A stretch of DNA of 64,000 bases, taken from NCBI RefSeq assembly GCF_055900595.2, contig NZ_CM148325.1. The stretch is one strand, 5' to 3'. A program made the translations under genes and the position numbers. Of this stretch, positions 14,187 to 30,180 are shown piece by piece. Each line of letters opens with the position of its first letter. Position 1 is the first letter of the stretch. The notes under the pieces are model-generated. The model did not search any database, was not told the DNA's origin, and was given only the letters and a program-made list of their open reading frames with translations.

Positions 14187-14774
14187 TCAGTTAACTGAAT
14201 CGATCCATTGCACACTGTCGGCGGTGAGCGTAAAGGGAGTAGGGGTGCAGATCGCCAGACTTAAATTTTCAAGCTGACAATGGCTGACTGACAGCGAGGA
14301 CTGATAGGTGCTGTCTACGCTGACGATTTGCCAGGCGCTGCCGCCACGTTGTTTAACGATAGCTTCTTTGCGTGTCCAGATGCGCCAGAACATTTCCAGT
14401 TGCTGATCTGGATGCACGGCGTCCATCTCGGCATGTTCTCCGAGGCTGAACACCGCGTTCGCCAGCCAGCGCCAGTTGGCACGCGGGCGAATCACTTCGA
14501 TATCGCAGCCGACTTCGCCCTCATCGCTCAACAGTAGGGCAATATCGTCACCGCTATGGCTTAAGTTGAACCATAGCGGCGTTTCCGGCGCGAATGCAGG
14601 TTTGCCTTGTTCGCCATAGATGATCTCAGGTAGCGGGGAAAGCGTGTGTGAAAGCAATGCACGCCCCGCCAGCCAGCGTTCGCGCCGTGGACCTTGCGGT
14701 GCTTTATCGCGTAAAGCCGGTGGCAGTGGAGCTGCGCTTAAGGTCGAAACTTTCCCCAGAACTATCCGATACAT
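14187..14774 (-). CDS. acpT: Sfp-type 4'-phosphopantetheinyl transferase AcpT
   Basis: 195 aa; WTRKEA-type PPTase motif (IWTRKEAIVKQRG). Start ATG 14772..14774 lies 1 nt after the stop of the upstream island KS gene. Confidence 0.9.
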   Translation of the reverse strand: MYRIVLGKVSTLSAAPLPPALRDKAPQGPRRERWLAGRALLSHTLSPLPEIIYGEQGKPAFAPETPLWFNLSHSGDDIALLLSDEGEVGCDIEVIRPRANWRWLANAVFSLGEHAEMDAVHPDQQLEMFWRIWTRKEAIVKQRGGSAWQIVSVDSTYQSSLSVSHCQLENLSLAICTPTPFTLTADSVQWIDSVN

Positions 14775-14775: not shown

Positions 14776-16005
14776 TCAGGGCCAACGTTTTATGATGATG
14801 GATGTATTAATGCCGCCAAAGGCAAAGTTGTTACTCTGCAAAAACTCACAATCAATCTTGCGCGCTTCATGCATGATGTAATCCAGCTCGCCACAGTTAG
14901 GGTCTGGTTTATTCAGGTTTAGCGTAGGCGCAAACCAGCCTTCTCGCATCATTTGCAGACTCATCCAGGCTTCGAGCGCGCCACAGGCACCAAGCGTATG
15001 ACCAAAATAGCTTTTCAGCGAGGAGAGCGGCACATTATCACCGTAAATGGCTGCTGTCGCCAGACTTTCTGCCATATCACCACGATCGGTCGCCGTGCCA
15101 TGCGCTGAAATATAGCCAATATCTTGTGCGCTTAACCCGGCGATTTTCAGCGATTGCTCCATACAATACTGCATGGTTTCTCGCTGTGGTTGGGTGATAT
15201 GCGCGGCGTCGCAGTTAGTGGCAAAGCCGACGATTTCTCCATAAATGGTCGCACCGCGCGCTTTGGCGTGCTCCAGTTCTTCGAGAATCAGCGTGCCTGC
15301 GCCTTCGCCAATCACCAGCCCGTCGCGGTTTTCATCGAACGGTGAAGGGGTGGTTTTCGGCGCGTCATTATGCTGGCTGGTGGCGAAAAGCGTATCAAAT
15401 ACCGCCGCTTCTGAAGGGCATAACTCTTCGGCGCCACCAGCAACCATCACCGTTTGATAACCGTGACGAATGGCTTCCCACGCGTAGCCGATCGCCTGGC
15501 TGCCGGAGGTACAGGCGCTGGAGGTTGGGATCACCCGCCCGCGCAGGCCAAAAAATAGCCCGGTATTAACGGCGGTGGTGTGCGGCATCATCTGCACATA
15601 GGTGGTGCCAGTGATGTTATTGGTGTGCTTTTCAGTCAGCATGGTGGCGAACTCGCTCACCGGACCGGTACTGCCGGTCGATGAACCGTACGCAATGCCC
15701 GTTTCGCCGCTGGTTAATATCGGATCGCCAATCAACCCTGCCTGCTCTAACGCCAGCTCGCTGGCTCGGGTCGACATTTGCGACACGCGGCCCATCGCAC
15801 GGATACGCTTACGGGTGTAGTGCTCCGGTAGCGTAAAATCATCAATCGGCGCGCCAAGCAGGGTATGCAGGCCATCGTAAACCTGCCACTCCGGCATTTT
15901 GCGCACTGCGTTCTCATACGCCAGCAAACGCGCGGAAACGTCCTGCCAGTTTTCACCAAAGGCAGTCACGCCGCCCATTCCTGTAATCACTACGCGACGT
16001 GTCAT
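14776..16005 (-). CDS. apeR: beta-ketoacyl-ACP synthase (APE cluster, ApeR-like)
   Basis: 409 aa; KS active-site Cys in SSACTSG, His motifs HGTATDRGD and GHTLGACG; ATGA overlap with the upstream reductase gene. Confidence 0.85.
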   Translation of the reverse strand: MTRRVVITGMGGVTAFGENWQDVSARLLAYENAVRKMPEWQVYDGLHTLLGAPIDDFTLPEHYTRKRIRAMGRVSQMSTRASELALEQAGLIGDPILTSGETGIAYGSSTGSTGPVSEFATMLTEKHTNNITGTTYVQMMPHTTAVNTGLFFGLRGRVIPTSSACTSGSQAIGYAWEAIRHGYQTVMVAGGAEELCPSEAAVFDTLFATSQHNDAPKTTPSPFDENRDGLVIGEGAGTLILEELEHAKARGATIYGEIVGFATNCDAAHITQPQRETMQYCMEQSLKIAGLSAQDIGYISAHGTATDRGDMAESLATAAIYGDNVPLSSLKSYFGHTLGACGALEAWMSLQMMREGWFAPTLNLNKPDPNCGELDYIMHEARKIDCEFLQSNNFAFGGINTSIIIKRWP

Positions 16006-16733
16006 AACATCCCTCCGTTGATGGAAATAACCTGGCGGGTGACGTAACCCGCAATATCAGACATTAAATAACTGGCAAGCCCGGCAACTTCTTCCGCCTG
16101 GCCCATGCGTTTCATGGGGATCATCGACATTGCCTCTTTCAGAGCGCTCTCTTCCATTTCGATCATCCCGGTATCAATAAGCCCCGGCGCGATGCAATTG
16201 ACGGTGATTTTGCGCTTCGCGAGTTCGATAGCCAGTGCTTTTGTTGCGCCGATAATTCCGGCTTTGGCAGCACTGTAGTTCACCTGGCCGCGATTGCCCA
16301 TTACGCCGGAAACCGAGGACAGCGTGATGATGCGTCCGCCCTGGCGTGCGCCGATCATCGGCATAATGCACGGCTGAATGACGTTGTAGAAACTGTCGAG
16401 GTTGGTGTGGATCACCGCATCCCAGTCGTCATCGCTTAAAGCCGGAAAAGCGGCATCGCGGGCGATCCCGGCGTTACTAACCACGCCGTACCAGGCACCG
16501 TGTTGCGCGATCTCGTGCTCCAGCACTTCCCGACACTGTTCGCGGTTTGCGACGTCGAAACTGAGCAAACGCCCGTTACCACCGTTGGCGACAATGGCAT
16601 TCAGCGTTTCCTGAGCGCCTGCGGCGTCACGGTGATAGTGAACGCCAATGTTAAAGCCGTCTGCCGCCAGTTGGCAGGCGATGGCGCGACCAATGCCTTT
16701 GCTGGCACCAGTAACCAGAACTGAACGACTCAT
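16002..16733 (-). CDS. apeQ: 3-oxoacyl-ACP reductase, SDR family (ApeQ-like)
   Basis: 243 aa; TGASKGIGRAIA dinucleotide-binding motif and YSAAK catalytic motif. Confidence 0.85.
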   Translation of the reverse strand: MSRSVLVTGASKGIGRAIACQLAADGFNIGVHYHRDAAGAQETLNAIVANGGNGRLLSFDVANREQCREVLEHEIAQHGAWYGVVSNAGIARDAAFPALSDDDWDAVIHTNLDSFYNVIQPCIMPMIGARQGGRIITLSSVSGVMGNRGQVNYSAAKAGIIGATKALAIELAKRKITVNCIAPGLIDTGMIEMEESALKEAMSMIPMKRMGQAEEVAGLASYLMSDIAGYVTRQVISINGGML

Positions 16734-17197
16734 CAGGACGCTCCTTGTTGAAACAGGGTGGTAAGTTCTTCCGCAGTCGGCTGGAAGGTGTTAATGCGGC
16801 CCGTTGCCTCGCCGTCGTTGATGCTGCACTCAAAACTGCCGAAGCGTTCATCTTGCATCAGCAGTTTGACGGTAATGGTCAGCGTCTGGCCTGCGGGCAG
16901 AATGCCAGCGGCGCAAAGCAATTCACGCGCGCCCAGTACCATCCCTAACTCAATACTGTTTTTGCCCTGCTGGTGGCGATGCCAGCCAGACCAGACGCCG
17001 ACGGTTTGCGCCATCAGTTCAAGGGCAAACCAGCCAGGGAGATTGCCGTCCGGGTCGAGAAACGGTGCCAGTACACCACTGGGCGAAACCGTCACGCGGC
17101 ACACGGCGCTGTCATCGCTGACGCTCACCACTTCTTCCAGCAGCAACATGGGCGCATCGTGGGGCAGATAAGCGCCGGGTGATAAATAGTGGCTCAC
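16733..17197 (-). CDS. apeP: hot-dog fold dehydratase subunit (ApeP-like)
   Basis: 154 aa; GTG start at 17197 overlapping the stop of the upstream KS gene; call rests on size and cluster position. Confidence 0.65.
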   Translation of the reverse strand: MSHYLSPGAYLPHDAPMLLLEEVVSVSDDSAVCRVTVSPSGVLAPFLDPDGNLPGWFALELMAQTVGVWSGWHRHQQGKNSIELGMVLGARELLCAAGILPAGQTLTITVKLLMQDERFGSFECSINDGEATGRINTFQPTAEELTTLFQQGAS

Positions 17198-18363
17198 GAA
17201 ACCCTCCCGAGCAGAATGCTGGCGTTATTGCCGCCAAAGGCGAAAGAATTGGACAGGATCACCGGACGTGCCAGCGGCTGTGGTTTTTCGATAATGCCGC
17301 ACGGTGGCAGCGTGGGATCGCGTGGCGACAGGCTGAAGTCCTGAGCGGGCAGCGGTAAATCACGCTCTAAGATCAACGTGCTAATTGCCGCCTCGGTAAT
17401 GCCCGCCGCGCCCAGCGTGTGTCCGGTCAAATGTTTGGTGGAGCTGCACGGTACGCGTTCGCCAAACAGGGCGTTAACCACCATTGATTCAATCTGGTCG
17501 TTGAGTTGTGTGGCGGTGCCGTGCAGGTTGATATAGCCCACCTCATCCGGCGTAAGCTGCGCATCGTTCAGCGCCTGGTTAATAGCGCGGATCGCCCCTT
17601 CGCCCTGCGGATGCGGGGCCGAAATATGATAAGCGTCGCTTGATTCACCAACGCCCAGTAACGCGATGGGCTGCGGTTCACGGGTCAGCAGCATTAGCCC
17701 CGCGCCTTCGCCAATGGTGATGCCCGCACGGTCACGACCGAACGGCTGACATAAGGTGGGCGACAGCGATTCGAGGCTGTGAAAACCGTTAATCGGCATC
17801 CGGCTCAGAGTGTCTGCGCCACCCACAATGGCGGCATCGACCAGCCCCGCTTCGATAAGCCTGCGCCCGCTGATCATCGCTCTGGCGCTGGAAGAGCAGG
17901 CGGTTGAAAGAGTATATGCCGGGCCGTCGAGCGCCAGCCAGTGGCTGAGAAAACGCGACGGATCGCCGAGTTCTTGTTGTGCATAGTGCCATGTGGTGCT
18001 TGGCTGCCCGTGGGTGCGCAGGTTAACGTGCGTGTCGCCTTCATGCAGGCCGGAGGTGCTGGTGCCAAGCACAATCGCGATGCGCTCGCGGCCATATTTT
18101 GCGATGGCGTCATCAACCTGCAGCTGGATCTGCGCCAGCGCCGCCAGCAGGATCTGATTGTTGCGCGAGCGGTGCGCAGCGAATTTTTCCGGGATAAGCG
18201 GAAGCTCGCCATCCACGCCAGCCAGGACCGCCTGCGGATGCCCCTGCAACCAGCCTGCGCGTGGGCGCATTCCGGGAGCAACACCGCGAGTCAGGTTGGC
18301 TGCGATCTCATCAAGATTATTTCCCAGGGCGTTGATCATGCCAACGGCGGAAATATAAATCAT
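17194..18363 (-). CDS. apeO: beta-ketoacyl-ACP synthase (ApeO-like)
   Basis: Active-site Cys in LSTACSSSA, His motifs LHGTATQ and GHTLGAAG. Start is either GTG 18372 (track) or ATG 18363. Confidence 0.8.
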   Translation of the reverse strand: MIYISAVGMINALGNNLDEIAANLTRGVAPGMRPRAGWLQGHPQAVLAGVDGELPLIPEKFAAHRSRNNQILLAALAQIQLQVDDAIAKYGRERIAIVLGTSTSGLHEGDTHVNLRTHGQPSTTWHYAQQELGDPSRFLSHWLALDGPAYTLSTACSSSARAMISGRRLIEAGLVDAAIVGGADTLSRMPINGFHSLESLSPTLCQPFGRDRAGITIGEGAGLMLLTREPQPIALLGVGESSDAYHISAPHPQGEGAIRAINQALNDAQLTPDEVGYINLHGTATQLNDQIESMVVNALFGERVPCSSTKHLTGHTLGAAGITEAAISTLILERDLPLPAQDFSLSPRDPTLPPCGIIEKPQPLARPVILSNSFAFGGNNASILLGRVS

Positions 18364-18364
18364 A

Positions 18365-18949
18365 TTAGTCACCTAAGTATTGAATGGTGATGTGGTATTT
18401 AAAGACATGCTGCTCAATGCTGATTGGCACGCGTTTTCCTTTGCGATTCAAATAGGTGATTTCCGTGACCAGTTTGCCGCTGGCGTTACGCAGTTCGCGT
18501 TTGTCACCGTTGTCACGAAGTGTCCATCCTGCGGGAAGTTGCGGTTGCCAGGCGCTAATCGGCCAGTGGCTGAGCATTACGTCAGCCAGCACCTGACTTG
18601 CTGGCGGCAACTGTGGGACGACGATGGATTGCTCGGCGCGTAGCCCTTGCGCATCGTAGGTCACCAGAAACAGACGAATGCCGACTGATGACAGTCCGGC
18701 AAGGGTGATTTTCTGGTCGTCGGCATTAAGCATCACCAACAGCGACTGGGTTTTGCCGTTGAAGCTGCCAGTCAACAGTTGTTGGGAATTGACGGCGGGT
18801 GAAATCCCCGGCGCAGGCAGCGTGATGCGTGTGCCAGGTTGCAGCCACGCCTGCGGGCGGCCTTCCTGTTCCGGTTGCGAGTGGCTACAGCCGGTGAGGA
18901 TAAGCGTAGCGGTCAGGGCGAGCGCCCGCCAGAAGGTGGGTTTGATCAT
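18365..18949 (-). CDS. apeN: DUF3261-like outer-membrane lipoprotein (ApeN-like)
   Basis: 194 aa; signal peptide with lipobox LTGC; ATGA overlap with the MMPL gene stop. Confidence 0.7.
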   Translation of the reverse strand: MIKPTFWRALALTATLILTGCSHSQPEQEGRPQAWLQPGTRITLPAPGISPAVNSQQLLTGSFNGKTQSLLVMLNADDQKITLAGLSSVGIRLFLVTYDAQGLRAEQSIVVPQLPPASQVLADVMLSHWPISAWQPQLPAGWTLRDNGDKRELRNASGKLVTEITYLNRKGKRVPISIEQHVFKYHITIQYLGD

Positions 18950-21261
18950 TTTTTTGTTCTCTTTTTATCGGGCATAGCCAGCGGCGAAAGCAGGAAGGCG
19001 GTGAAAATACCGCTCACCAGCACAATGCCAAAACTGCTGATGGCCTGAGTGGCGCTGAATACCAGCATTCCCAGCGTCAGCAAGGTGGTGAGCATTGCCA
19101 GCGTGATCGCCAGTAGGGAAGTTAACGGTGTACCGCGCGGATTACTGAAAAACAGCGTGTAGTTGATGCCGATGCCAAGCACCAGCACCAGCGCCAGCAG
19201 CGAAAAGAGATTCACCGCCTGCCCGCTCATCGCCAGCACTGCCAGACCGCAGCCCAGCGAAAGCACCGAAGGCACCAGGCTGATAAGCCCTTTGCGCCAG
19301 CCAAGGCGGGCCACTGCGCCGCAGGCAATCACTGCCAGCGCCACCAGCAACAAACCGGTTAAGACGTGGCGGTAAAGTGCGAACAATTCATCAAAAGTGT
19401 TTTTGCGATCAACCCAGGCAATGCCCTGGTAATAGCTGGCTGTTTCCTGCAACAACGCGCTACTTTTAACCCCTTCAACCGGCACCAGTACGCCGCTTGC
19501 GCCGTTTTCCAGCGTCAGCCACAGCAGACGCCAGCCTTCACTGGCGGGGCTTGCCAGCCATTCATCGACCTTCACTGGCATGGCGTTGAGATCTGGTTTC
19601 ACCGCCGTCAGCCCGGCATTTTGCAGCGCTTTTGTTACCGTCGGGGCAGACGTTTTCAGCAGATGTAAATCTTCCTCCTGCCGCACCAGGGAGTTCAGCG
19701 GAATAGTGCGGTAGTTGCTGATAAGACCGTCTTTTTTCGCTTTCTCCAGCGAGGCGGTAAATGTCTCCAGCCGCCGCAATGTTTGCTGTGGCGAATCGCC
19801 GTAAACCACAAACCATTTTTGATCGACGCTTTGTCCGGTCAGGGCGGTAATGGCTTTTTCCTGCGCCAGAATATGCTGCGGCAGCGCCTGTAACTGCGAG
19901 ATATCGTCATCGACGCGCAGCATTGACATCCCCGCCAGCGAAAACAGCGCCAGCGCGACGGGCAGACCCCGCGACAGTTTTTTATTGCGCCGCCACGCCG
20001 CCAGCCAGCGCAGCATCAGCGCCATCGCCGGAACCGGACGCACCGGCAGGCCACGGCACAGCCACGGATGCCAGAACAGAACGGTCAGACAGGAGGCGCT
20101 CAACCCGACGGCGGCAAAAATCGCCATCTGGCGAATGCCGGGGAAGGGGGCGAGCATCATAATCAGATACGCCGCCACGGTGGTGAGCAGCGCCAGTAGC
20201 AAGGCATTGCGCACTTTCGCCAGGCTTTGCCACGGCGAAACGTCATTGCCGTGCACCATCCGTTCAGTGAGGTAATAGAGCGTGTAGTCAGCGGAAATGC
20301 CGATAACGCTCATGCTCATCACCAGCGTCATCAGGTGTAATTCACCGAAAATCAACAAGGTGGCGACCGTTCCCGCCAGCGCGCCAATGCCGATGGAAAT
20401 CACGCAAAGCAGCAACGGGCGTAAAGAGCGGAACACCGCCACAATCAGTAATATCACCCCCAGCAGCGTTGCCACGCCCAGGGTTGAGATATCCTGCTTC
20501 GCCTGTTGACTGGCGTAATCGCTGTAAAATACCGTGCCGCGCGAGAGCAACTGCGCCTGCGGGTAACGCGTTTTCAGATCCTTTTCCAGCGTATTCAGGG
20601 TGGTGATGAGCTGGTGGGTTTGCTGCATATCAAACGACGATCCCGCCAGTTCTCCGTGTAGCAGATACCAGTAGTTGCCCTGGGGATCCTGCGTCACCAG
20701 CCAGCCGTCCATCAGTCGTAAACGCTGACCGTTTTTCGCCATCGCCAGCTGCGAGCCGCGCATTAACATCAGCGGATCGTTTTGCAGCTCCTTGCCGCTT
20801 ACCCCGGAGAACGCAGAATAAAGCTGGGAGAGGATCCACTGCGCCTGCGCTTCACCGCCGTTTTGTAGTCGGGCGCGAGTGTCGGGGTCAATCAGGCCGT
20901 TGCGATGCTGCCAGAAAAACGCTCCCCACGCCTGCTGGCTGGCGGCATCCATTGGCCCTTTAACATCGCCGAGCGCAGCGGATTTTTGCAGCAGCGTCAG
21001 CCATTCCTGAGCGACCAGGGGATTAGCCTCTTTACCGGGGCTGACCAGCCACACCAGTTGGCGGTCCAGACGCTGCATAAAGCCGTCATTCAGCGCCGGG
21101 GGAATATCGCCCATCGCCTGTTTGGGTAACATAGCCAGCACGCTACTGTTCAGTCGTGATTGCGGCAGCAGGATCAGCAACGCCGCTGCCATGACCAGGC
21201 AGATGATCCCCCATAACAGCGCCGGGCGTTTACTGGGCGGCAAAACGTTGGCGTTCGTCAT
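18946..21261 (-). CDS. apeM: MMPL/RND-superfamily predicted exporter (ApeM-like)
   Basis: 771 aa with two clusters of TM helices separated by soluble domains. Start 21261 overlaps apeL by 32 nt; an alternative ATG at 21192 is possible. Confidence 0.75.
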   Translation of the reverse strand: MTNANVLPPSKRPALLWGIICLVMAAALLILLPQSRLNSSVLAMLPKQAMGDIPPALNDGFMQRLDRQLVWLVSPGKEANPLVAQEWLTLLQKSAALGDVKGPMDAASQQAWGAFFWQHRNGLIDPDTRARLQNGGEAQAQWILSQLYSAFSGVSGKELQNDPLMLMRGSQLAMAKNGQRLRLMDGWLVTQDPQGNYWYLLHGELAGSSFDMQQTHQLITTLNTLEKDLKTRYPQAQLLSRGTVFYSDYASQQAKQDISTLGVATLLGVILLIVAVFRSLRPLLLCVISIGIGALAGTVATLLIFGELHLMTLVMSMSVIGISADYTLYYLTERMVHGNDVSPWQSLAKVRNALLLALLTTVAAYLIMMLAPFPGIRQMAIFAAVGLSASCLTVLFWHPWLCRGLPVRPVPAMALMLRWLAAWRRNKKLSRGLPVALALFSLAGMSMLRVDDDISQLQALPQHILAQEKAITALTGQSVDQKWFVVYGDSPQQTLRRLETFTASLEKAKKDGLISNYRTIPLNSLVRQEEDLHLLKTSAPTVTKALQNAGLTAVKPDLNAMPVKVDEWLASPASEGWRLLWLTLENGASGVLVPVEGVKSSALLQETASYYQGIAWVDRKNTFDELFALYRHVLTGLLLVALAVIACGAVARLGWRKGLISLVPSVLSLGCGLAVLAMSGQAVNLFSLLALVLVLGIGINYTLFFSNPRGTPLTSLLAITLAMLTTLLTLGMLVFSATQAISSFGIVLVSGIFTAFLLSPLAMPDKKRTKK

Positions 21262-21835
21262 CGGTCAGTTGCGCTGGCGTCAGTTGATGTTGGGTAAGAG
21301 CGATATCGGTGCGATCGCCCTGTTTATCATTAAGCTGAATGCTCTCCAGATAGGTTTGCCCGGCGAGATCGATGGTATTGAAAATTTTATCCAGCGGCGT
21401 GGTGGTCGGCGTCAGGCGCAGCGTCCAGCGGCCTTCGCCTTTGTCAGCAAATTCGACGCGGAAGTTTTGTTCCAGCACTTTGCGATCGGCCTGGAACAGC
21501 GCGCGCAGCAGGTGGTTAAACTGGAACATCTGCGGGTTATTTTCTGCCGTGATGATTTGTGGCGGCTGACCGTTGATCACCTGCACCATGCGTTTATCGT
21601 CCAGTAATAGCTGCATGGGGAACGGTGAGGTTTGATCCCACAACAGCCCCTGGTCGCGGGCGATCAACATCTGCCCCTGCGATCGCAGCGGTTGCGGCAG
21701 ATCTTTAATCGTCCGGGTTTGATCGAAATGGGCGCGGATCACCGGCTGTTCGGTAAAGCGTTGCTGAAGATCGTCCAGGGTCAGGGCGCTCACAAACGGG
21801 CTAATCAGCAGCGCCAGCAGCGGTAAAAATTTCAT
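21230..21835 (-). CDS. apeL: LolA-like outer-membrane lipoprotein carrier protein (ApeL-like)
   Basis: 201 aa; cleavable signal peptide (MKFLPLLALLISPFVSA); LolA-like size. Confidence 0.7.
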   Translation of the reverse strand: MKFLPLLALLISPFVSALTLDDLQQRFTEQPVIRAHFDQTRTIKDLPQPLRSQGQMLIARDQGLLWDQTSPFPMQLLLDDKRMVQVINGQPPQIITAENNPQMFQFNHLLRALFQADRKVLEQNFRVEFADKGEGRWTLRLTPTTTPLDKIFNTIDLAGQTYLESIQLNDKQGDRTDIALTQHQLTPAQLTDDERQRFAAQ

Positions 21836-22254
21836 GGTTTGACTCCCATGCGTTCAAACAGAATATCGGGGCTGACAAAGCACAGTTCGCGGCTTTGCTC
21901 GTCGACCGCGACCTGAATGGTGTATCCGGTGGTGGCGCGTTTGCCCGTTTCGGCATCGAAAATCTGATAGCCAATTCGCAGGCGGTTTTCGAACTCTTCG
22001 ATATGCGCACGCACGCGGATGCGTTGCTCAAAGGTGAGGGCGTGGCGATATTTCACCCGCGCATCGACCACTGGCCACAAATAACCCGACTCTTTCATCT
22101 GCCGATAGCCGTAATTGAACTGGTTGAGCAGCGCCTCGCGGGCCACTTCAAAGTAGCGAAAATAGTTACCGTGCCAGGCCACGCCCATCATATCGACGTC
22201 GTGAAATGGAATGATCAGCTCGACTTCAGCGGTAAATCGGGGATCGTTAAGCAC
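21832..22254 (-). CDS. apeK: 4HBT/YbgC-type hot-dog thioesterase (ApeK-like)
   Basis: 140 aa; HDVDMMGVAWHGNYFRYFE thioesterase motif; GTG start. Confidence 0.75.
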   Translation of the reverse strand: MLNDPRFTAEVELIIPFHDVDMMGVAWHGNYFRYFEVAREALLNQFNYGYRQMKESGYLWPVVDARVKYRHALTFEQRIRVRAHIEEFENRLRIGYQIFDAETGKRATTGYTIQVAVDEQSRELCFVSPDILFERMGVKP

Positions 22255-22257
22255 CCT

Positions 22258-23934
22258 TTACTCCTTGTCCTGGACTTCCGGCAGTTGCCAGAAATCGAAA
22301 AAATTAAACCAGTCGAGGGGCGACTGGAGCGCGTGATGTTCCAGACGCGCGGCGTAATGATCGATAGCGTTTTGCAGCGCCTGCTGGCGTTCGCCACGCG
22401 GCAACAGCAGCGGGTCGGCAAAGGTTTCGCAGTTAATATGCAGCTTGCCGTGCTGGCGCAGGGCGAAAATCAGATTCACCGGGCAGCGCAAAATAGACGC
22501 GAGAATAAACGGCCCCTGTGGGAAGGGCGCAGGCTGGCCCATAAACGAACTCCAGCAGACGCGCCAGTCGCCGCCGCGTTGCGGGTTGATGGCGATGCGG
22601 TCACCAACAATCGCCACCCATTCGCCGTTATCCAGCTTCTCTTTTAGCAGGATGGCGGTGTCCGGGCCGATATCCGTCACCGGCATCAGGTTAATGCCTG
22701 CCTGAGGAGCCATCTCCTGCATTATCTGTTTAAAGCGTTGGGCGTTTTCGCTAAACACCAGCGCGTTAATGGTTTTGTAGCCCTGAATTTTTGCCAGCGC
22801 CCGGCACACTTCCACATCGCCAAGATGCGAGGCCAGCAGCAATTTGCCGCGCGGATCGCTGACGTTAAGTGCCGCTTCTGCGCCTGGTGCAAACAGCACA
22901 TCACGCCCGAGTTGCAGCTCGCCGCGCCAACTGGCGATTTTGTCGAGCATGGCGTTGCCGAAACGTAGAAAGTGCTGATAGCTGTTGAGTTTTGCTGCCT
23001 GTGGTTGATGCTGGCGCACACGGGCGAGCCAGTCTTGCGACGCTTTGCGCGCCCGGCTGGCGGTGAGCCAGTAGACGCCCACCACCGGATAAAGCAGCGC
23101 GGTAAACGCCGTTCTTCCCAGCAGGCGCCAGACCAGCAGCATCAGGCGCATTCCCCATAATCCTTTCACTTCGCTCTGCCGCGCCCAGTGGCTGGAAGAG
23201 TGGCGCATCAGCAGCGAAGGAATACGCGGCAACATGCCGAAAAACAGGCGCGTGTGCATGAGCGAGATGCGGACGTTATCTTTCAGGGCATCAAAGTGCG
23301 AAAGCCCGTCCAGCGGATAGGTGACGCGGGTCGGCACGAAATAGCTGGTGTTTCCCTGCCAGTAGAGGCGCACCATCACTTCGGTGTCGAAATCCATCCG
23401 CTTGCCGATGGTGGCGTGTTTTGCCAGTTGCAGCGTTGGCGCAACCGGATAAACGCGAAAGCCGCACATGCTGTCTTTCAGTTGCAGGGAGAGCGTTTCG
23501 ACCCATACCCAGATGTGGGTGACCCAGCGCCCGTACAGCCGTGAGCGGGGGATGGAGTCATCGTAAATTGGCTGGCCGGAGATCAGTGCCGCAGGGTGTT
23601 GTTCAGCGAGTGCCAGCAGTTTGGGGATATCTTCAATCGCGTGCTGACCGTCGGCATCTACCTGTACCGCATGGCTGAACCCCGCGTCTGCCGCTGCCTG
23701 TAAGCCGCGCATTACCGCCGCGCCTTTGCCTGCGTTTTCTGCCAGGCGAATTAATGTCACGCCAGGCTGTTCGGCAACCAGATTATCCAGTTGCTGTTGC
23801 GTGGCGGCATCGCTGCCGTCATCCACCACAATACAGGGCAGATTAAATGGCTTAAGACGCGCCAGCACGCCCGGCATCATTGCGCCGTGGTTGTAGCAGG
23901 GGATCAACACGCAGGGAGAAAAGTTTACCGACAT
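22258..23934 (-). CDS. apeJ: family-2 glycosyltransferase fused to a C-terminal acyltransferase-like domain (ApeJ-like)
   Basis: 558 aa; N-terminal GT-A fold signature (CYNHG...VVDDGSDA), longer C-terminal domain. Confidence 0.7.
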   Translation of the reverse strand: MSVNFSPCVLIPCYNHGAMMPGVLARLKPFNLPCIVVDDGSDAATQQQLDNLVAEQPGVTLIRLAENAGKGAAVMRGLQAAADAGFSHAVQVDADGQHAIEDIPKLLALAEQHPAALISGQPIYDDSIPRSRLYGRWVTHIWVWVETLSLQLKDSMCGFRVYPVAPTLQLAKHATIGKRMDFDTEVMVRLYWQGNTSYFVPTRVTYPLDGLSHFDALKDNVRISLMHTRLFFGMLPRIPSLLMRHSSSHWARQSEVKGLWGMRLMLLVWRLLGRTAFTALLYPVVGVYWLTASRARKASQDWLARVRQHQPQAAKLNSYQHFLRFGNAMLDKIASWRGELQLGRDVLFAPGAEAALNVSDPRGKLLLASHLGDVEVCRALAKIQGYKTINALVFSENAQRFKQIMQEMAPQAGINLMPVTDIGPDTAILLKEKLDNGEWVAIVGDRIAINPQRGGDWRVCWSSFMGQPAPFPQGPFILASILRCPVNLIFALRQHGKLHINCETFADPLLLPRGERQQALQNAIDHYAARLEHHALQSPLDWFNFFDFWQLPEVQDKE

Positions 23935-24278
23935 AGGCGGATCTTCCCGCTACTGGCGGTGTGGCGGGCGTCACCGTCGTGACGCTGATAACTAAAGCTC
24001 AGAATCTGGCGTTCTTCCTGCCAGCTAAGCGTGAGTGTGACGCGGTTATCCGGCAGCAATGGAGCCTGGAATTTGATGTTCTGAATGGAGTGAAAACGCC
24101 AACCGGGCGCGAGCAGGGCAAGCGCGTAACTCATCGCCCAGTCGATTTGCGCCACGCCAGGGAGTAATGGTTGTACGGCAAAATGACCGCGAAACCAGAA
24201 CAGATCTGCCCTGAGATGCAAAACAATCTCAAGGTGATTCACTTGTGCCTGATGGCGCTCGATTTCATGGGGCTTCAT
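23925..24278 (-). CDS. apeI: FabZ-like 3-hydroxyacyl-ACP dehydratase (ApeI-like)
   Basis: Hot-dog dehydratase motif FRGHFAVQPLLPGV. ATG at 24278 preferred over the track GTG at 24308, which would overlap apeH by 44 nt. Confidence 0.75.
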   Translation of the reverse strand: MKPHEIERHQAQVNHLEIVLHLRADLFWFRGHFAVQPLLPGVAQIDWAMSYALALLAPGWRFHSIQNIKFQAPLLPDNRVTLTLSWQEERQILSFSYQRHDGDARHTASSGKIRLCR

Positions 24279-25626
24279 GAAATAACTCCTGTAATTGCGC
24301 ATAGACACGCTTGTTCATACTGTTTACTGGCATTTCATCAATAACGCGCCAGTAACGCGGAATAGCAACTGGCTCCAGCGTCGGGCGCAGTAATCGCCGC
24401 CAGGCCATTTCCTGGCTGTGCCCGCCGCCGTTTTGCCATTGCAGGCGAGCTTCGTCATCCAGCACCAGCAAAACGCCAATACTCTGACGTCCGCCGCGCG
24501 TAACGGGAACTGCCGCCGCCTCGCGAATACCGTCCAGCGCCAGCAGACGTTGTTCTACTTCCTGGAGTGAAATACGTTTTTCTTCAATCTTAACGATGCG
24601 CCCACGACGCCCCATCAGATGGAACTGACCGTCCTGGCTAAACTGCAAGAGATCATCGAGTAACAGGCCGTTATCTTCCGCTATCAGCGGTGAAAAGAGG
24701 CGAAATGCTTCACCTTCGGCCTGGAACTGCACACCTGGGAAGGGTAGCCAGCGGCGTTGCTCTTGTTCGCGGTAACGCCAGGCGATGACGCCGGTTTCCG
24801 TGCTGCCGTAGATTTCATCAGGCCAGACGCGCAGCCAGCTCGCGGTATATTGTACGTCCTGCCACGGCAGCTCACCGCCAGCAGAGAGAAGCACCTGAAC
24901 GGGCGGCGGAGAAAGCTGGGTATCCAGCCGTTTCAAAAATGCCGGGCTGCTGATGAAGATATAGCGATGCTGGTGACTCAATGCGGCAAACTGTTCGACA
25001 TACCAGAGCATGGCGGCGTGCAGCGGTAATCCCAGCGCCATTGGCAGGAAAACGCGAAAAGTCAGGCCGTACAAATGCTGCGGCAATACGGAACCGACGA
25101 CACGACATCCGGCAAGACGTGCGCCTAATCGTTCAGCCAGCAGTTCTGCTTCACGGTCCAGCAAATGAACAGGTTTAATTACCCGCTTTGGCTGCCCCGT
25201 AGAACCGGAGGTAAACAGCTCGATATAAGCGTCTGGCGCTATAGCGGCAAAGGTGAATGATTGTGTCGCGACTTGTGGGGAGCTTGCTACCAACAGCAAT
25301 GAACCTTGCCAGTTAAGTTCGCTGTCGCTAAGCACACCATCGAACAGTTCACGTTGCTCGTTAAGCTGGATGACGCGGTTATGCCCCGGAAGCACCGGTG
25401 TTTTTCCGGCGTGTAGCGTGGCGAGCAGGGCAACGATAAACAGATAGCAGTCCTCAAAGCACAGCGCCCAGCGTTCACCTGGTTGTTGCTGTAAACGGCA
25501 GATAAGTTGCGAGACATCGTGACGCAAATCGCCCAGCGTCCAGGTGCTTTCGTCCAGCCACGCAATGGGCGTGTCATCAGGGCGTGGCGCAGTCAGCCAG
25601 CGTGCAAGCGGTAAGGTCTGCTTCAT
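24265..25626 (-). CDS. apeH: AMP-dependent acyl/aryl ligase (adenylate-forming; ApeH-like)
   Basis: Adenylation P-loop FTSGSTGQPKRV. ATG at 25624..25626 forms an ATGA overlap with the apeG stop; the track start 25665 is an extension. Confidence 0.8.
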   Translation of the reverse strand: MKQTLPLARWLTAPRPDDTPIAWLDESTWTLGDLRHDVSQLICRLQQQPGERWALCFEDCYLFIVALLATLHAGKTPVLPGHNRVIQLNEQRELFDGVLSDSELNWQGSLLLVASSPQVATQSFTFAAIAPDAYIELFTSGSTGQPKRVIKPVHLLDREAELLAERLGARLAGCRVVGSVLPQHLYGLTFRVFLPMALGLPLHAAMLWYVEQFAALSHQHRYIFISSPAFLKRLDTQLSPPPVQVLLSAGGELPWQDVQYTASWLRVWPDEIYGSTETGVIAWRYREQEQRRWLPFPGVQFQAEGEAFRLFSPLIAEDNGLLLDDLLQFSQDGQFHLMGRRGRIVKIEEKRISLQEVEQRLLALDGIREAAAVPVTRGGRQSIGVLLVLDDEARLQWQNGGGHSQEMAWRRLLRPTLEPVAIPRYWRVIDEMPVNSMNKRVYAQLQELFHEAP

Positions 25627-26204
25627 GAGCGATCTCTTTTCATCACCTGACGGCGCACCAGCCATTCACCAGCCATTAACGTCCCCATCAACAAATAAGC
25701 AATCATGCCGTTCCAGGCAGTCCATAACGACATATCGCCATGCAGCGCGGTAAAGAGGGCAATTCCGCCGTTGATGATGAAAAAGCCGCACCAGATTTGC
25801 GTGACGTGGCGGGTATAGCGCACGCCCTTTTCCGGGAGGTCTGGCTCCTGCAAACGCGCCAGCCGCTCAACAATTGGCATTGCCGACCACAGCGAACCGC
25901 CAAAAACCGCCAGCATTACCGCGTTAACCACTACCGGGTAAAACAGCAGTAGCTGGTGCGTTTTCAACAGAAAGCTGGCGACACACAAGGCGATACCCAC
26001 GACAGCGACGATTTGTGTGACGGCTTGTAGCGGCTCGGCCTGGCAACGAGTCTGGCGCAGGCGCAATAAAAGCAGCAGCGCCATCAGCGGCAACAGCCAG
26101 TGCAGGCCGTTATGTGCCAAACCAAGCCAAATCACAAACGGCCAGGCGAGCAGTAATAATCCGGTCAGCAGTTTAATAATCGGTAGCGAGCGAATGCCCG
26201 ACAT
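25623..26204 (-). CDS. apeG: polytopic inner-membrane protein of unknown function (ApeG-like)
   Basis: 193 aa, about five hydrophobic helices; ATG 26202..26204. Confidence 0.65.
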   Translation of the reverse strand: MSGIRSLPIIKLLTGLLLLAWPFVIWLGLAHNGLHWLLPLMALLLLLRLRQTRCQAEPLQAVTQIVAVVGIALCVASFLLKTHQLLLFYPVVVNAVMLAVFGGSLWSAMPIVERLARLQEPDLPEKGVRYTRHVTQIWCGFFIINGGIALFTALHGDMSLWTAWNGMIAYLLMGTLMAGEWLVRRQVMKRDRS

Positions 26205-26208
26205 CAGA

Positions 26209-26460
26209 TCAGGCTTCTTGTAGCAGGCGTTCTACGGCCTCTACGACATCCTGGACTGTACGCACTGCTTTAAACTCTTCCGGCTTGATTTTCTTACCGG
26301 TTTTCTTTTGCAGATGCACAATCATGTCAACGGCGTCGATGCTGTCCAGTTCCAGATCTTCGTACAGGCGCGCTTCAGGTTTGATGTCCTGCGGATCGAT
26401 TTCAAACAGCTTAACCAGCAGAGCTGAGACTTCCTGATAGACGGTTTGTTGTTCTGTCAT
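26209..26460 (-). CDS. apeF: acyl carrier protein (ApeF-like)
   Basis: Pantetheine attachment motif LELDSIDAVDM. ATG at 26460 (MTEQQ...) or the track GTG at 26475. Confidence 0.8.
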   Translation of the reverse strand: MTEQQTVYQEVSALLVKLFEIDPQDIKPEARLYEDLELDSIDAVDMIVHLQKKTGKKIKPEEFKAVRTVQDVVEAVERLLQEA

Positions 26461-26471
26461 GATGGCTTTCC

Positions 26472-26729
26472 TCACGCACGTTGTGCAGCAATAAAAGAGG
26501 CCAGAGTGGCGACAGAGAAAAAGTGCTGACGCATCTCTTCACTTTCCGCAGAAAGTACAACGCCATATTCATTTTTTACTGCCAGCCCCAGTTCCAGGGC
26601 ATCGATGGAATCCAGCCCTAAACCGTCGCCGAACAGCGGCGCATCGGTCTCGATATCATCAGGAGTCAACTCGTCCAGATTGAGGGTGCTGATGATGAGG
26701 TTTTTAATTTCCAGATAAAGCGCTTGCAT
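26472..26729 (-). CDS. apeE: acyl carrier protein (ApeE-like)
   Basis: 85 aa; LGLDSIDALEL motif; ATG 26727..26729. Confidence 0.8.
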   Translation of the reverse strand: MQALYLEIKNLIISTLNLDELTPDDIETDAPLFGDGLGLDSIDALELGLAVKNEYGVVLSAESEEMRQHFFSVATLASFIAAQRA

Positions 26730-27525
26730 TATTTATTCCTGAGAGAGGTAAACAACCTTGTTGTAATTGAAGCAAAAGATGCCGGTTTAACTGCCTTGCT
26801 GCCAGCGCCGGTTCTTGTGAAGTTGCAACGTAAAATTTATTGATTTCAACCCGATCATGGACTTCAACCGTAAAAAACGGCCTGGCAGGTGGAACGTCAT
26901 ACCATTTACTTTGTTTATCCAGCAGATGCTCGCTACAGCCGATCGTCACGATGCGTAAATCGCTGGCACAGCGCACGGCAATATTCGCCGCCCCGCGCTG
27001 CAGCGTCATTTTTTCACCGGGCTTCGTTCGCGTGCCTTCGGGGAAAATCAAGATAGTGTCGCCCTGTGCCAGTCGCTGTTGGCAGCGGGGTAACAGGGTT
27101 TCAGCTTCGCTGTTGATTAAATAATCTGCCGCCCGCACAACGCCGCCAAGAAAAGGATTTTTTAACAGCGCGCTTTTCACCAGGCAGTCAGTTTCTGGCA
27201 TGACTGACGCCAGCAGTACGTAATCGATAAGCGTGGGATGATTAGCTACGACGAGGCAACCGCGTTCCTGACGTAAAATTTCAGCGCCATCAATACGATA
27301 ATCCAGCACGCCAAGCCCTTTCGCGACAGTTAAAAACAGGCGAAAACTGGCGGCAATGCTGCGACGCGCCAAACGACGGCGGCGGGAAGTATCCCACACC
27401 AAAACTAACAATATGTTAAACCACACGACAGAAAGCAGCAGGCCGCCGAGACCAAACAGGGCAAAACACAACCCGGTCATAACCAGTCGCCATGTCCATT
27501 CCAGGCGTGACATCAGCTTACTCAT
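26704..27525 (-). CDS. apeD: PlsC-like lysophospholipid acyltransferase (ApeD-like)
   Basis: 273 aa; N-terminal TM anchor; HX4D acyltransferase motif NHPTLID; ATGA overlap with the apeC stop. Confidence 0.75.
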   Translation of the reverse strand: MSKLMSRLEWTWRLVMTGLCFALFGLGGLLLSVVWFNILLVLVWDTSRRRRLARRSIAASFRLFLTVAKGLGVLDYRIDGAEILRQERGCLVVANHPTLIDYVLLASVMPETDCLVKSALLKNPFLGGVVRAADYLINSEAETLLPRCQQRLAQGDTILIFPEGTRTKPGEKMTLQRGAANIAVRCASDLRIVTIGCSEHLLDKQSKWYDVPPARPFFTVEVHDRVEINKFYVATSQEPALAARQLNRHLLLQLQQGCLPLSGINNASALSGN

Positions 27526-28244
27526 CTACGGCTCCAGCGCCACTGTACGCGCTCACCAGGAAGTGAAAAAGCATCTGAATTTTGTAAATAGTGCTGTAAA
27601 AACAACATGCTTTGCGGCAGTGTTGTTTCATTGCCCGCAATGGCTGGCTGTGTTTCACATTGCCACTCATCGCCAGCTTCAATCACCAGCGCAACAGCAT
27701 ATGGCCAGGTCGGCATTTCTGCTGGGAGCTGCGGATGATAGAACTCAGGTAGAAAGCCATCAAAATCGACCATCAACACGCGCTGGTATCCCGCTTGTAA
27801 CAGGCTAAGCACTTCACACAAACCTTGCTGGAAAGTGTCGCGACCAGCCGAAAGCGATGAGGAAACGATCGGTTGTTTGGCCGCAATGGTCAGGTTACCC
27901 ACGGAAGAGTTGTGTACGGAGAGCGCGAAGTCCGTCGGAGAGAGCGCCTGTTCGGTTGCCAGTGCATGAACAATGCGGTAATTGCGCTCCAGCTCGCCAT
28001 GACGACTGGTATACAAAACGGCGTCTGGCTGATGGTGGCGTAGCATTGCCAGACCGCACTCCACGGCCAGTTTGCTGCCAGAACTGAGACGGCGGGCGGT
28101 CATCATTGGCAGTTCACTTAATTTTGCCAACGGTGCGGCAGGGTCAACCGCCCACGGCTGGCGCGACCATGCTTGCCATTGCTGGGCTTCGCTAAGTCCA
28201 GGCGCCAGTGCCTTCCAGTCGGTAATATTTAATGTAAATTTCAT
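27522..28244 (-). CDS. apeC: truncated KS-like protein lacking the active-site Cys motif; chain-length-factor-like partner (ApeC-like)
   Basis: About 240 aa with no TACSS-type motif. ATG at 28244 (MKFTLNI...) preferred over the track TTG at 28268. Confidence 0.6.
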   Translation of the reverse strand: MKFTLNITDWKALAPGLSEAQQWQAWSRQPWAVDPAAPLAKLSELPMMTARRLSSGSKLAVECGLAMLRHHQPDAVLYTSRHGELERNYRIVHALATEQALSPTDFALSVHNSSVGNLTIAAKQPIVSSSLSAGRDTFQQGLCEVLSLLQAGYQRVLMVDFDGFLPEFYHPQLPAEMPTWPYAVALVIEAGDEWQCETQPAIAGNETTLPQSMLFLQHYLQNSDAFSLPGERVQWRWSRR

Positions 28245-28284
28245 CAACGCGCGCCCGCGGTAAACCAAAATTATTAAGTGACGA

Positions 28285-29343
28285 TTATTTCTTTTGGCAT
28301 ATCAATAATGTATGCCCAACGCCTAAATTATCGTGGCGCTCTGCTACCTGAAATCCTGCTTTATTCAGATAGTCGTAAAATTTCTCTGCGCTATAGAAAC
28401 GGCTGTTACCGTTTGCCATGCAGGTAAAATAAAGTGAGGACGCGTTCAGGCTAAATGATGCTGCTTCAAACCGCTGCGCATCCCAGAACAACTCCATGAT
28501 GCAAACTTTTGCGCCAGGCTTCATTACGCTGGCGATTTTGCTGAGTATGCTAATTATTTGTTCGGGTGAAAAACAGTCTAAAAATTGGCTCATCCACCAG
28601 ATATCAGCCTCGCCCGGTAATGGGGCATCGCTTAGCATATCCACCGCATGGAAATCTATGCGATCAGAAAAACCTGCATTCGCGATATTTTCTTTCGCTA
28701 GTACGATTTGTTGTGGCAGATCTAATAACGTCACGGCGATGTTTTCATTGTATTTGCAGCAACGCAAAGCCCACTTACCCGTATTGCCGCCTACATCGTA
28801 CAATGTTGTGGGGTTGTTGGCGAATACATAAGGCAGTGCGGCGTTAAATGCGCCATCTGAATAGTAATGATCAAACGCAAACCAGCTTTCACGAGCGGCA
28901 TCTGGTAATTGTGAAAGTGCGGGATATATCGTCGACCAGTCGCCAAATACTTTTAACCCGGACGGTTTTCCTTCATTGAGTGAATCGGCGAGGAAGAAGA
29001 GCCCCTGATAGCAGACATCCTGGGTGAAATCCATATTCACGCGAGTCATAGTGTCATGCAGGAGGTAATGACCGATTTTCGCCAGGTAATACATTCCCTC
29101 TTTACAGGTAATAATTCGCCCGCTTAAGCCCATATCTAACAGAACGCTGGCCGCATATTCGTTGATATGGCTATGTTCGGTGATATCAGCCAGCGTTGCG
29201 CCATGTTTGCCTTGCCGATCCAGATATGAAAGTACACCCGCATTACGTAGGCAGAGAGCTGTTTGAAAAAGCATGGGGGCAAAGGCAATGCGTTGAGCTT
29301 CGGTAATCGCATCCAGTGCGCTAAGAGAATCCTGTTCGTACAT
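28285..29343 (-). CDS. apeB: SAM-dependent methyltransferase, probably O-methyltransferase (ApeB-like)
   Basis: SAM-binding motif LYDVGGNTG; ATG at 29343 (MYEQ...) or the track GTG at 29352. Confidence 0.75.
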   Translation of the reverse strand: MYEQDSLSALDAITEAQRIAFAPMLFQTALCLRNAGVLSYLDRQGKHGATLADITEHSHINEYAASVLLDMGLSGRIITCKEGMYYLAKIGHYLLHDTMTRVNMDFTQDVCYQGLFFLADSLNEGKPSGLKVFGDWSTIYPALSQLPDAARESWFAFDHYYSDGAFNAALPYVFANNPTTLYDVGGNTGKWALRCCKYNENIAVTLLDLPQQIVLAKENIANAGFSDRIDFHAVDMLSDAPLPGEADIWWMSQFLDCFSPEQIISILSKIASVMKPGAKVCIMELFWDAQRFEAASFSLNASSLYFTCMANGNSRFYSAEKFYDYLNKAGFQVAERHDNLGVGHTLLICQKK

Positions 29344-29411
29344 GTTGGGCACAACCTGTTAAGAGGGAATTAAATTATTATCGGACCGAAGCGGCCCGAC
29401 TTTAGGGGAAA

Positions 29412-29801
29412 TTACAAATCTGCGCCAGCCGACAAATTCAGTTGAATATCTTTGTCGAGATTGCGGACCCAGCGATTATAGTTTTTATGAATTTGTCCGC
29501 CTGATGCTTGCAGGTTCTGACTATTTTCATAATTGATATCGTAGCTGGATGCCGTGTAGTTAATGCGAATTTCGGCTGAATGATCGCGTGACTGTTGACG
29601 TGCTTTAATTACGCCTTGTCCGGCTTCGGACATAATCCATTTGCGTTCAACGCCAGCTTTCAGAATCGCTTTTTTCACTTGTTCCTGGGTATGACCAGCG
29701 CTGACGGTTGAGTGAACCTGATCAATTGGCGCAGTACGCGCGCAACCCGCTAAAGCACCCACAACAGCAATAGCCGCAAACCATTTCATGTAATGTCTCA
29801 T
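29412..29801 (-). CDS. small lipoprotein of unknown function at the island edge
   Basis: 129 aa; signal peptide and lipobox (AVVGALAGC); start ATG at 29801 or 29789; candidate hairpin terminator just downstream. Confidence 0.55.
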   Translation of the reverse strand: MRHYMKWFAAIAVVGALAGCARTAPIDQVHSTVSAGHTQEQVKKAILKAGVERKWIMSEAGQGVIKARQQSRDHSAEIRINYTASSYDINYENSQNLQASGGQIHKNYNRWVRNLDKDIQLNLSAGADL

Positions 29802-30130
29802 TAGAATCCCATTAAAGTATTGTTTTTACGAGTAAAGCAAGATTTAACTGTAATTGCTGGCATCACTATTCTTTATTTAGCGAAAAAATTACTTGTGAGA
29901 TAAGTCAGTAAGTGCACATCAGAGTAAAAATTTCTGAAATGACTAAATTACTGCCAGCGGGGACCAACTATAAGTGAGTGAGAAAAATGAGGCAATAAAA
30001 ATAACAGATTGTTATCAGTGCATTCTTTGAGAGGGATTTAATCGCTATTCGGCGTTTATATATATTTGACTTAAGGAATGGTTTTTATAAATTAATTGTC
30101 TGAATAATGTTTCTTCATTTCCTCAAATCA
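29802..30130 (-). promoter_or_regulatory. AT-rich intergenic region, candidate promoter/regulatory region for the island
   Basis: About 330 bp of markedly AT-rich, stop-dense sequence upstream of the minus-strand island genes; no specific sites identified. Confidence 0.3.
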
Positions 30131-30160: not shown

Positions 30161-30180
30161 TGCCTGCTCAGGAGGTGCTA

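Follow-up and report, generated by a model that had tools for sequence, protein, structure and literature searches.

We analysed a presumptive aryl polyene (APE) gene cluster that lies next to acpT in a 64,000-nucleotide stretch of contig NZ_CM148325.1 (NCBI RefSeq assembly GCF_055900595.2), hereafter called the window. The list of open reading frames (ORFs) and the RefSeq annotation of NZ_CP098223.1, a 100%-identical genome whose names from RefSeq and the Prokaryotic Genome Annotation Pipeline (PGAP) served as annotation reference, revealed that positions 14776-29801 are covered by a chain of minus-strand ORFs comprising 18 genes, apeA to apeR (Table 1). A sequence-only reading of the same DNA had counted 17 genes; the tight co-directional packing on the minus strand that it described is indeed present, but the number fell short because the lipoprotein gene apeA had been omitted, although it lies inside the coordinates given at the time. 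The stop-start overlaps reported there were seen again, with 4-nt ATGA or GTGA overlaps at six junctions (apeQ/R, apeO/P, apeM/N, apeK/L, apeG/H and apeC/D) and a TGATG overlap at one (apeP/Q), and longer overlaps occur at apeL/M (32 nt), apeD/E (26 nt), apeH/I (14 nt) and apeI/J (10 nt). None of the 18 ape ORFs contains an internal stop, and the acpT ORF is likewise intact. As acpT begins 1 nt past the apeR stop, it belongs to the same gene array and is better read as the putative terminal gene of the operon than as a flank.

The GC content of the island is 55.3% versus 52.3% in the remaining window, in keeping with the earlier statement that the composition is not strikingly foreign, and it drops to 44-50% from apeF through apeA and the upstream region, in which the ape promoter is presumed to reside. 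Promoter and terminator scans upstream of apeA (~390 nt) gave counts at chance level, including a single weak minus-strand site of sigma-70-like type (29995-29967) that is not above chance, and an Rfam scan of window positions 12000-33000 returned no match. A hairpin read from the sequence at 30131-30162, beside the yhhT stop, could act as the yhhT terminator.

Assignment to the aryl polyene family

The reference cluster of E. coli CFT073 (Johnston 2021, PMC8253772; Cimermancic 2014, as cited in PMC8253772) consists of 18 genes over 15.5 kb, from apeA (c1204) to apeR (c1186), in one orientation and with overlapping ORFs (PMC8253772). Gene-by-gene comparison with c1204-c1186 revealed a one-to-one correspondence with equal gene order and lengths, and for 14 of the 18 proteins (ApeR, Q, P, O, N, M, L, K, J, F, E, D, C and B) the identity to the CFT073 protein amounts to 94.0-99.6%. 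The family assignment and the apeB-to-apeR layout proposed in the sequence-only reading were thus upheld, the full extent being the complete, co-directional apeA-apeR set in the published order, and the functions that it had named were all recovered through NCBIfam, Pfam, PDB or fold searches.

Several enzymatic features characteristic of the subfamily are found in the window. ApeR, ApeO, ApeQ, ApeE, ApeF and AcpT score above curated NCBIfam cutoffs; ApeO carries the Cys-His-His triad expected of a ketosynthase (KS), whereas a motif check of its partner ApeC for this triad found none, as for a KS/chain-length-factor pair. ApeO, ApeC, ApeI and ApeP match the Xenorhabdus doucetiae structures 6QSP and 6QSR, with ApeI and ApeP corresponding to the two chains of a heteromeric hot-dog dehydratase (6qsr_A and 6qsr_B; PGAP 'ApeI/ApeP family dehydratase'). 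Two dedicated acyl carrier proteins (ACPs) with a phosphopantetheine serine are accompanied by a dedicated ketoreductase (ApeQ), lipid attachment is represented by the lysophospholipid-type acyltransferase ApeD and the glycosyltransferase/acyltransferase fusion ApeJ, and an export set is formed by ApeM, ApeL, ApeN and ApeG, for which the LolA and MMPL matches stay below cutoff and the orthologues are 97-99% identical to CFT073, with ApeG (80.8%) assigned by orthology only. The two KSs, the ketoreductase, the ACPs, the ANL enzyme, the methyltransferase, the acyltransferase ApeD and the phosphopantetheinyl transferase all retain their catalytic motifs.

Table 1. Genes, upstream region and CFT073-comparison segments of the acpT-linked APE locus (window coordinates; identities are for proteins unless marked DNA)
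Feature	Position	Strand	Assignment and supporting match	Identity to CFT073	Motifs and remarks
acpT	14187..14774	-	4'-phosphopantetheinyl transferase; NCBIfam NF007676 (AcpT), 394 bits, cutoff 174		FNLSH, GCDIE and WTRKEAIVK all found
apeR	14776..16005	-	FabF-like KS; NF006587, 780 bits, cutoff 470	98.8% (c1186)	Cys165, His302 and His336 found
apeQ	16002..16733	-	3-ketoacyl-ACP reductase (FabG2); TIGR01831, 476 bits, cutoff 339	99.6%	TGASKGIG (TGxxxGIG) and YSAAK (YxxxK) found
apeP	16733..17197	-	hot-dog dehydratase subunit; PDB 6qsr_B, 6e-48; PGAP 'ApeP family dehydratase'	97.4%
apeO	17194..18363	-	elongating KS; PDB 6qsp_A, 1e-173; NF006618, 556 bits, cutoff 407	97.9%	triad motifs ACSS, HGTAT and GHTLG found
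apeN	18365..18949	-	DUF3261 lipoprotein; Pfam DUF3261, 3e-39	96.9%	lipobox LTGC, residues 18-21; LolB-like according to the literature
apeM	18946..21261	-	MMPL/RND-superfamily exporter; PGAP 'MMPL family transporter'	96.9%	partial NCBIfam matches to HAE3, HpnN and MMPL families, none reaching cutoff
apeL	21230..21835	-	LolA-like periplasmic carrier; LolA TIGR00547, 1.7e-16, below cutoff; PGAP 'LolA family protein'	99.0%
apeK	21832..22254	-	YbgC/FadM-type hot-dog thioesterase; TIGR00051, 1.4e-16, 60.8 bits, cutoff 68.7	99.3%
apeJ	22258..23934	-	N-terminal lipid-phosphate-type GT2 glycosyltransferase fused to C-terminal LpxM/PatA-type acyltransferase
apeI	23925..24278	-	hot-dog dehydratase subunit, partner of ApeP; PDB 6qsr_A, 3e-38	71.8%	divergent block 1
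apeH	24265..25626	-	adenylating acyl-ACP synthetase, predicted to load the aryl starter; nearest NCBIfam family 4-coumarate-CoA ligase, 1e-23, below cutoff; no curated family cutoff reached; PDB search at 1e-8 without relative	66.6% (O157 96%)	ANL core motifs TSGSTGQPK, YGSTE and FHLMGR found; divergent block 1
apeG	25623..26204	-	polytopic membrane protein, COG4648; no match in Pfam, NCBIfam and PADLOC; role by orthology and literature (PMC8253772 alone)	80.8%	3' part in divergent block 1
apeF	26209..26460	-	ACP 2; NF003757, 146 bits, cutoff 65	96.4%	carrier serine motif LDSID, read from translation
apeE	26472..26729	-	ACP 1, aryl polyene chain carrier; NF006617, 90 bits, cutoff 70	94.1%	carrier serine motif GLDSID found
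apeD	26704..27525	-	lysophospholipid/glycerol-3-phosphate-type acyltransferase; TIGR00530 domain, 3e-15	97.4%	HPTLID (HX4D) and FPEGT found
apeC	27522..28244	-	chain-length-factor partner of ApeO; PDB 6qsp_B, 8e-91; Pfam Ketoacyl-synt_2, 7e-67	94.2%
apeB	28285..29343	-	S-adenosylmethionine-dependent methyltransferase, predicted to act on the aryl head group; FlxJ-family methyltransferase NF053543, 475 bits, cutoff 560	94.0%	DVGGNTG found; 5' ~240 nt in divergent block 2
apeA	29412..29789 (29801 from upstream ATG)	-	small lipoprotein, 125 aa, first cluster gene; no match in Pfam and NCBIfam; role by orthology and literature only	65.6% (c1204)	lipobox LAGC, residues 13-16; divergent block 2
AT-rich upstream region	29790..30180	-	presumed site of the ape promoter		~43% GC
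Segment apeR to apeJ	14776-23950			95.8% (DNA)
Segment apeI, apeH and 3' part of apeG	24000-25750			65.9% (DNA)	divergent block 1
Segment remaining apeG to most of apeB	25800-29150			93.8% (DNA)
Segment 5' apeB and apeA	29200-29801			67.6% (DNA)	divergent block 2; block start ~29100
Segment upstream of apeA				no homology

The sequence-only reading had also described a glycosyltransferase/acyltransferase fusion, and this fusion, ApeJ, is real. Its N-terminal GT2 domain was confirmed by sequence search, whereas the C-terminal 320 residues had no sequence match in Pfam, NCBIfam or PDB; distant homologues were therefore collected and aligned. H370, in an HX4E motif, is invariant among the 96 aligned homologues, the AlphaFold2 model has a mean predicted local distance difference test score of 94.4, and the two-domain architecture of ApeJ is confirmed at fold level. 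A lipid-phosphate-type glycosyltransferase would be consistent with the N-acetylgalactosamine-phosphate-glycerol linkage of the X. doucetiae APE lipids (bioRxiv 10.1101/2020.12.19.423268).

By orthology with CFT073 or X. doucetiae, from which the experimental basis comes (PMC8253772; bioRxiv 10.1101/2020.12.19.423268), a pathway can be proposed in which AcpT would phosphopantetheinylate apo-ApeE and apo-ApeF to yield the holo forms, in line with the in vitro activity of AcpT on the O157 ApeE/F homologues (PMC8253772). ApeH would then adenylate 4-hydroxybenzoate supplied by UbiC, the starter described for both the CFT073 and the X. doucetiae systems (PMC8253772), and load it on ApeE directly without a coenzyme A intermediate. 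Elongation with malonyl units would be started by ApeR, as in the X. doucetiae reaction reconstituted in vitro, where it is the initiating KS (PMC8253772), and continued by the ApeO:ApeC pair, with ApeQ reducing each beta-keto group and ApeI:ApeP dehydrating to give a conjugated all-trans polyene. ApeB would methylate the aryl ring, ApeK would provide a thioesterase step, and ApeD and the bifunctional ApeJ would put the polyene on a glycerophospholipid-type anchor; the structure of such an APE-lipid and the roles of ApeD, ApeJ and ApeF have been reported (bioRxiv 10.1101/2020.12.19.423268). The pigment-lipid would be transported by ApeM, ApeG, ApeL, ApeN and ApeA to the outer membrane, where it is predicted to quench reactive oxygen species (ROS) and to promote biofilm. 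Heterologous expression of the CFT073 cluster gave a yellow cell-bound pigment, protection from ROS and biofilm (PMC8253772), and CFT073 and X. doucetiae are the only two sources for which a cell-bound yellow aryl polyene chromophore at ~430-441 nm has been demonstrated (PMC8253772; bioRxiv 10.1101/2020.12.19.423268).

Several observations weigh against a straightforward transfer of these properties to the window. For ApeH, ApeI, ApeG and ApeA, identity to the characterised proteins of CFT073 is no more than 66-81%, and the upstream regulatory region is unrelated to that of CFT073, so that product details and regulation could differ; moreover, the transport components ApeM, ApeL, ApeG and ApeA stay below every curated family cutoff, and under laboratory conditions the X. 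doucetiae cluster stays silent (bioRxiv 10.1101/2020.12.19.423268). With these points taken into account, we nevertheless consider it very highly probable that positions 14776-29801 together with acpT represent an intact chromosomal acpT-linked APE cluster of the Enterobacterales, with a pathway assigned by homology, which is ancestral at the nik-acpT site and was deleted in K-12 and most E. coli. Such an acpT-linked cluster, of the O157:H7 type, is already known from De Lay & Cronan 2006 (cited in PMC8253772), and in other E. coli genomes the acpT locus bears the RefSeq name 'ApeP/ApeI family dehydratase'; the only additions made here are the corrected boundaries (apeA and acpT), an explicit deletion scar, the fold-level confirmation of ApeJ and a two-block mosaic.

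The acpT-yhhT site in K-12 and across species

The sequence-only reading had placed the cluster as an insertion between acpT and yhhT, a description that did not hold. When ApeR relatives were collected at one genome per species (405 returned) and linkage was counted in the best 80 loci, all from Enterobacterales species, an acpT homologue was found directly downstream of apeR in 61 of the 80, within ~10 nt (~60 nt in two Pseudocitrobacter), in genera that include Citrobacter, Klebsiella, Enterobacter, Raoultella, Kluyvera, Atlantibacter, Yersinia nurmii and Hafnia. In Citrobacter amalonaticus, C. sedlakii and Superficieibacter, nikA adjoins the cluster as well. acpT is thus a conserved operon end, and K-12 carries a scar at the corresponding position.

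Indeed, in K-12 (TG1) acpT and yhhT are adjacent, as had been stated, with a spacer of 54 nt, and the accessory status of the cluster relative to K-12 holds. Alignment of the junctions revealed that the first 16 nt of this spacer, next to acpT, equal the apeR 3' end and stop of the window allele (AAACGTTGGCCCTGA plus 1 nt), with 26 of 32 nt matching over the first 32. The CFT073-type apeR encodes the same terminal residues with other bases (AAGCGCTGGCCCTGA); on the basis that the 16 nt match the window allele and not the CFT073-type spelling, these bases belong to apeR and mark a deletion scar. The right-hand 34 nt of the spacer, searched inside the island, scored no better than shuffled sequence, and the scar is therefore confined to the left 16-32 nt. 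All K-12-like empty-site genomes with complete flanks, among 20 sampled, share the same 2649-bp geometry.

Divergence from O157:H7 TW14359 is equal inside the island (94.6-97% identity) and in the nik and yhhT-zntA flanks. No tRNA occurs in the whole 64-kb window, no integrase or transposase gene is found among the annotated neighbours of the cluster, and no direct or inverted repeats flank it beyond chance-level 16-30-mers; hence neither a mobility gene nor a tRNA/att target nor flanking direct repeats mark the site, just as the sequence-only reading had stated. Its further proposal of an old resident locus lost from K-12 gains support from the apeR remnant, the acpT linkage and the equal divergence of island and flanks. 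Taken together, acpT linkage, the apeR scar, the single empty-site geometry, equal divergence and the lack of mobility marks show the acpT-linked copy to be the ancestral one, and K-12 to carry a deletion that orphaned acpT. This picture agrees with the published view, as it is cited in PMC8253772, that a rearrangement left the K-12 AcpT without the carrier proteins that are its substrates in O157:H7 (De Lay & Cronan 2006).

Two loci in the species comparison stand apart. In Pantoea ananatis LMG 2665, ApeR is 92.9% identical to that of the window and has an acpT homologue behind it, in contrast to the other Pantoea/Erwinia loci, which are at ~83% and without acpT; the LMG 2665 cluster may reflect inter-family transfer. 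A record filed as Chryseobacterium sp. 18061 contains an Enterobacteriaceae-type apeR-acpT locus whose identities nearly equal those of Citrobacter sp. 18056 from the same project, which suggests that the assembly is mislabelled or contaminated.

With the island alone as query, 841 of the 5426 complete E. coli genomes (~15%) proved to carry the cluster, in every case on the chromosome, and a flank-inclusive query with at least 80% coverage identified copies at the acpT/yhhT site in 569 genomes. The other ~250-270 copies fall in a band of 90-95% identity (e.g. CFT073, Nissle 1917 and RM13322); the two that were examined, CFT073 and RM13322, lie in an insertion sequence (IS)-rich island with no adjoining acpT, with an integrase too in CFT073. 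Among these genomes the commonest E. coli APE form is thus the acpT-linked one and not the widely used CFT073-type. Little is at stake here for discovery, and the practical value lies in studies of APE function in E. coli, where it matters that the starter-loading enzyme region and the promoter are not alike in the two forms and that the cluster of some O157:H7 lineages (TW14359) contains nonsense mutations. The window strain itself is unusually diverged in this region: nikA-E (nik operon, 8700-14700) are 91-96% identical to O157, at least 99% identity over the 18-kb region 13500-31500 is reached in only 8 of the 5426 genomes, and the locus is ~96% identical to that of Escherichia sp. E1V33.

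The CFT073 mosaic and competing explanations

A three-way alignment revealed that the window cluster is a mosaic relative to the CHARACTERISED cluster, with two divergent blocks set in otherwise closely related DNA (Table 1), and that the CFT073 upstream region has no homology to that of the window. The sharp bounds of the two blocks look like a cassette replacement between the acpT-linked and pathogenicity-island forms. The window allele class is common to the O157 and Escherichia sp. E1V33 copies, and in neighbour-joining trees the CFT073 ApeH forms a separate deep branch, whereas the CFT073 ApeO and ApeJ nest within Escherichia. No donor of the CFT073-type apeGHI block was found among the 80 species loci, the best being a Citrobacter at 73%. 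On the other hand, no enzyme of the cluster evolves faster than ApeH, with 46-75% identity between genera versus 83-95% for ApeR, and both ApeH alleles, that of the window and that of CFT073, retain 94 of the 95 alignment columns at which 26 other genera show no variation. Because ApeH evolves fast everywhere and both alleles retain these columns, the two-block mosaic, a pattern in sequence, does not argue strongly for new chemistry.

It is accordingly quite unlikely that the acpT-linked allele, through its divergent ApeH, ApeI, ApeG and ApeA, makes a product that differs chemically from CFT073 APE_Ec, be it in the aryl starter, the length of the chain or the lipid anchor. Such a difference would account for two sharp blocks of ~66-68% DNA identity inside a cluster that is otherwise 94-96% identical, for the low identity of the four encoded proteins and for the deep branch of the CFT073 ApeH, yet the conserved ApeH columns and the rapid evolution of this enzyme in all genera speak against it, as does the description of CFT073 and X. 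doucetiae as both 4-hydroxybenzoate-started (PMC8253772). We likewise attach little credence to the broader proposal that E. coli has two deep APE allele classes, an acpT-coupled ancestral one versus one of pathogenicity islands, which differ by the apeI-apeH-apeG and apeA/5' apeB cassettes and by their promoters, such that the acpT-linked class may differ in starter, anchor/export or regulation.

A loss of function in the window strain, the cluster being a silent or decaying relic without product, is unlikely, if somewhat less so. Most E. coli have lost the cluster, the promoter scan found no site above chance, the X. doucetiae counterpart is silent under laboratory conditions, and in TW14359 both apeH (Q302*; locus 17493-18854, orthologous to window 24265-25626) and apeD (W44*; locus 19932-20753, orthologous to window 26704-27525) are interrupted and annotated as pseudogenes. 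By contrast, all 18 ORFs and acpT of the window are intact with their catalytic motifs kept; orthologous copies are also intact in O157:H7 TT12A, O145:H28 RM13514 and strain 550, so the decay in TW14359 is lineage-specific, and the CFT073 ape genes are described as inducible by redox stress (PMC12871727). Far less probable still, and already largely refuted, is a recently acquired mobile genomic island between acpT and yhhT: absence from K-12 and ~85% of complete E. coli genomes, a 93%-identical CFT073-type copy in an IS-rich pathogenicity island and a GC content slightly above that of the flanks would fit with it, but at the acpT/yhhT site integrase, IS element, tRNA and flanking repeats are all lacking, the apeR 3' end in K-12 denotes a deletion and not an untouched attachment site, the nikA-acpT-apeR order is common to Citrobacter and Superficieibacter and acpT-apeR to 61 of 80 species, and island and flanks are equally diverged from O157. 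We thus retain the reading of an intact, ancestral acpT-linked APE cluster.

Neighbouring genes and comparison with known systems

Three other genes of the window were recorded. At 1-1573 (+), a DUF4049-family gene that adjoins yhiJ and is paralogous to it is listed in the matching genome annotation as a pseudogene interrupted by an internal stop. The interval from tusA to zntA contains, at 34559-34867 (+), a hydrophobic ORF of 102 aa whose annotation is hypothetical protein; it had no match in a PADLOC search, and the surrounding segment (~34340-34800) had none in the orthologous O157:H7 TW14359 region. Between ugpB and livF, at ~51010-51756 (+), the matching genome annotation places a gene for a tetratricopeptide-repeat protein.

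Among the closest known systems is the acpT-adjacent cluster of O157:H7, which we take to be O-island 138. It occupies the same site and has the same allele class (94.6-97% DNA identity including apeGHI and apeA) and acpT coupling, and is 95.7% identical overall, a DNA difference of ~4%; TW14359 is set apart by its nonsense mutations in apeH and apeD, while O157 TT12A, like the window, has an intact copy. Like it, the window cluster lies directly upstream of acpT at nik/yhhT with a 1-nt gap, and its carrier proteins would, by analogy with the O157 literature, be substrates of AcpT, as those of O157:H7 are according to De Lay & Cronan 2006 as cited in PMC8253772. An APE cluster was also detected by antiSMASH in an ST11/O157-specific genome segment, possibly the acpT-linked locus, and labelled BGC0000836 (PMC9205054); we infer that this MIBiG entry is the label of the CFT073 cluster.

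The CFT073 cluster has the same 18 genes as the window, in the same order and orientation and with overlapping ORFs, and differs in its context, an integrase- and IS-rich island without adjoining acpT as opposed to the nik-acpT/yhhT site. X. doucetiae encodes full-length homologues of ApeO (1e-173), ApeC (8e-91), ApeI (3e-38) and ApeP (6e-48) with the same predicted enzymology, although it belongs to another genus and its proteins differ substantially in sequence from those of the window. No DarA/DarB dialkylresorcinol or halogenase genes were found in the gene array, DarB giving only a 22-bit match within a KS. Finally, flexirubin and xanthomonadin clusters have in common with the window a type II polyketide synthase/fatty acid synthase-like logic, a LolA-like protein, a short-chain dehydrogenase/reductase and a methyltransferase; the next-best NCBIfam matches of window proteins are to FlxJ, FlxB and LolA2, and as their scores all stay below cutoff (475 versus 560, 266 versus 340 and 55 versus 125 bits, respectively), a flexirubin-type APE cluster was rejected.

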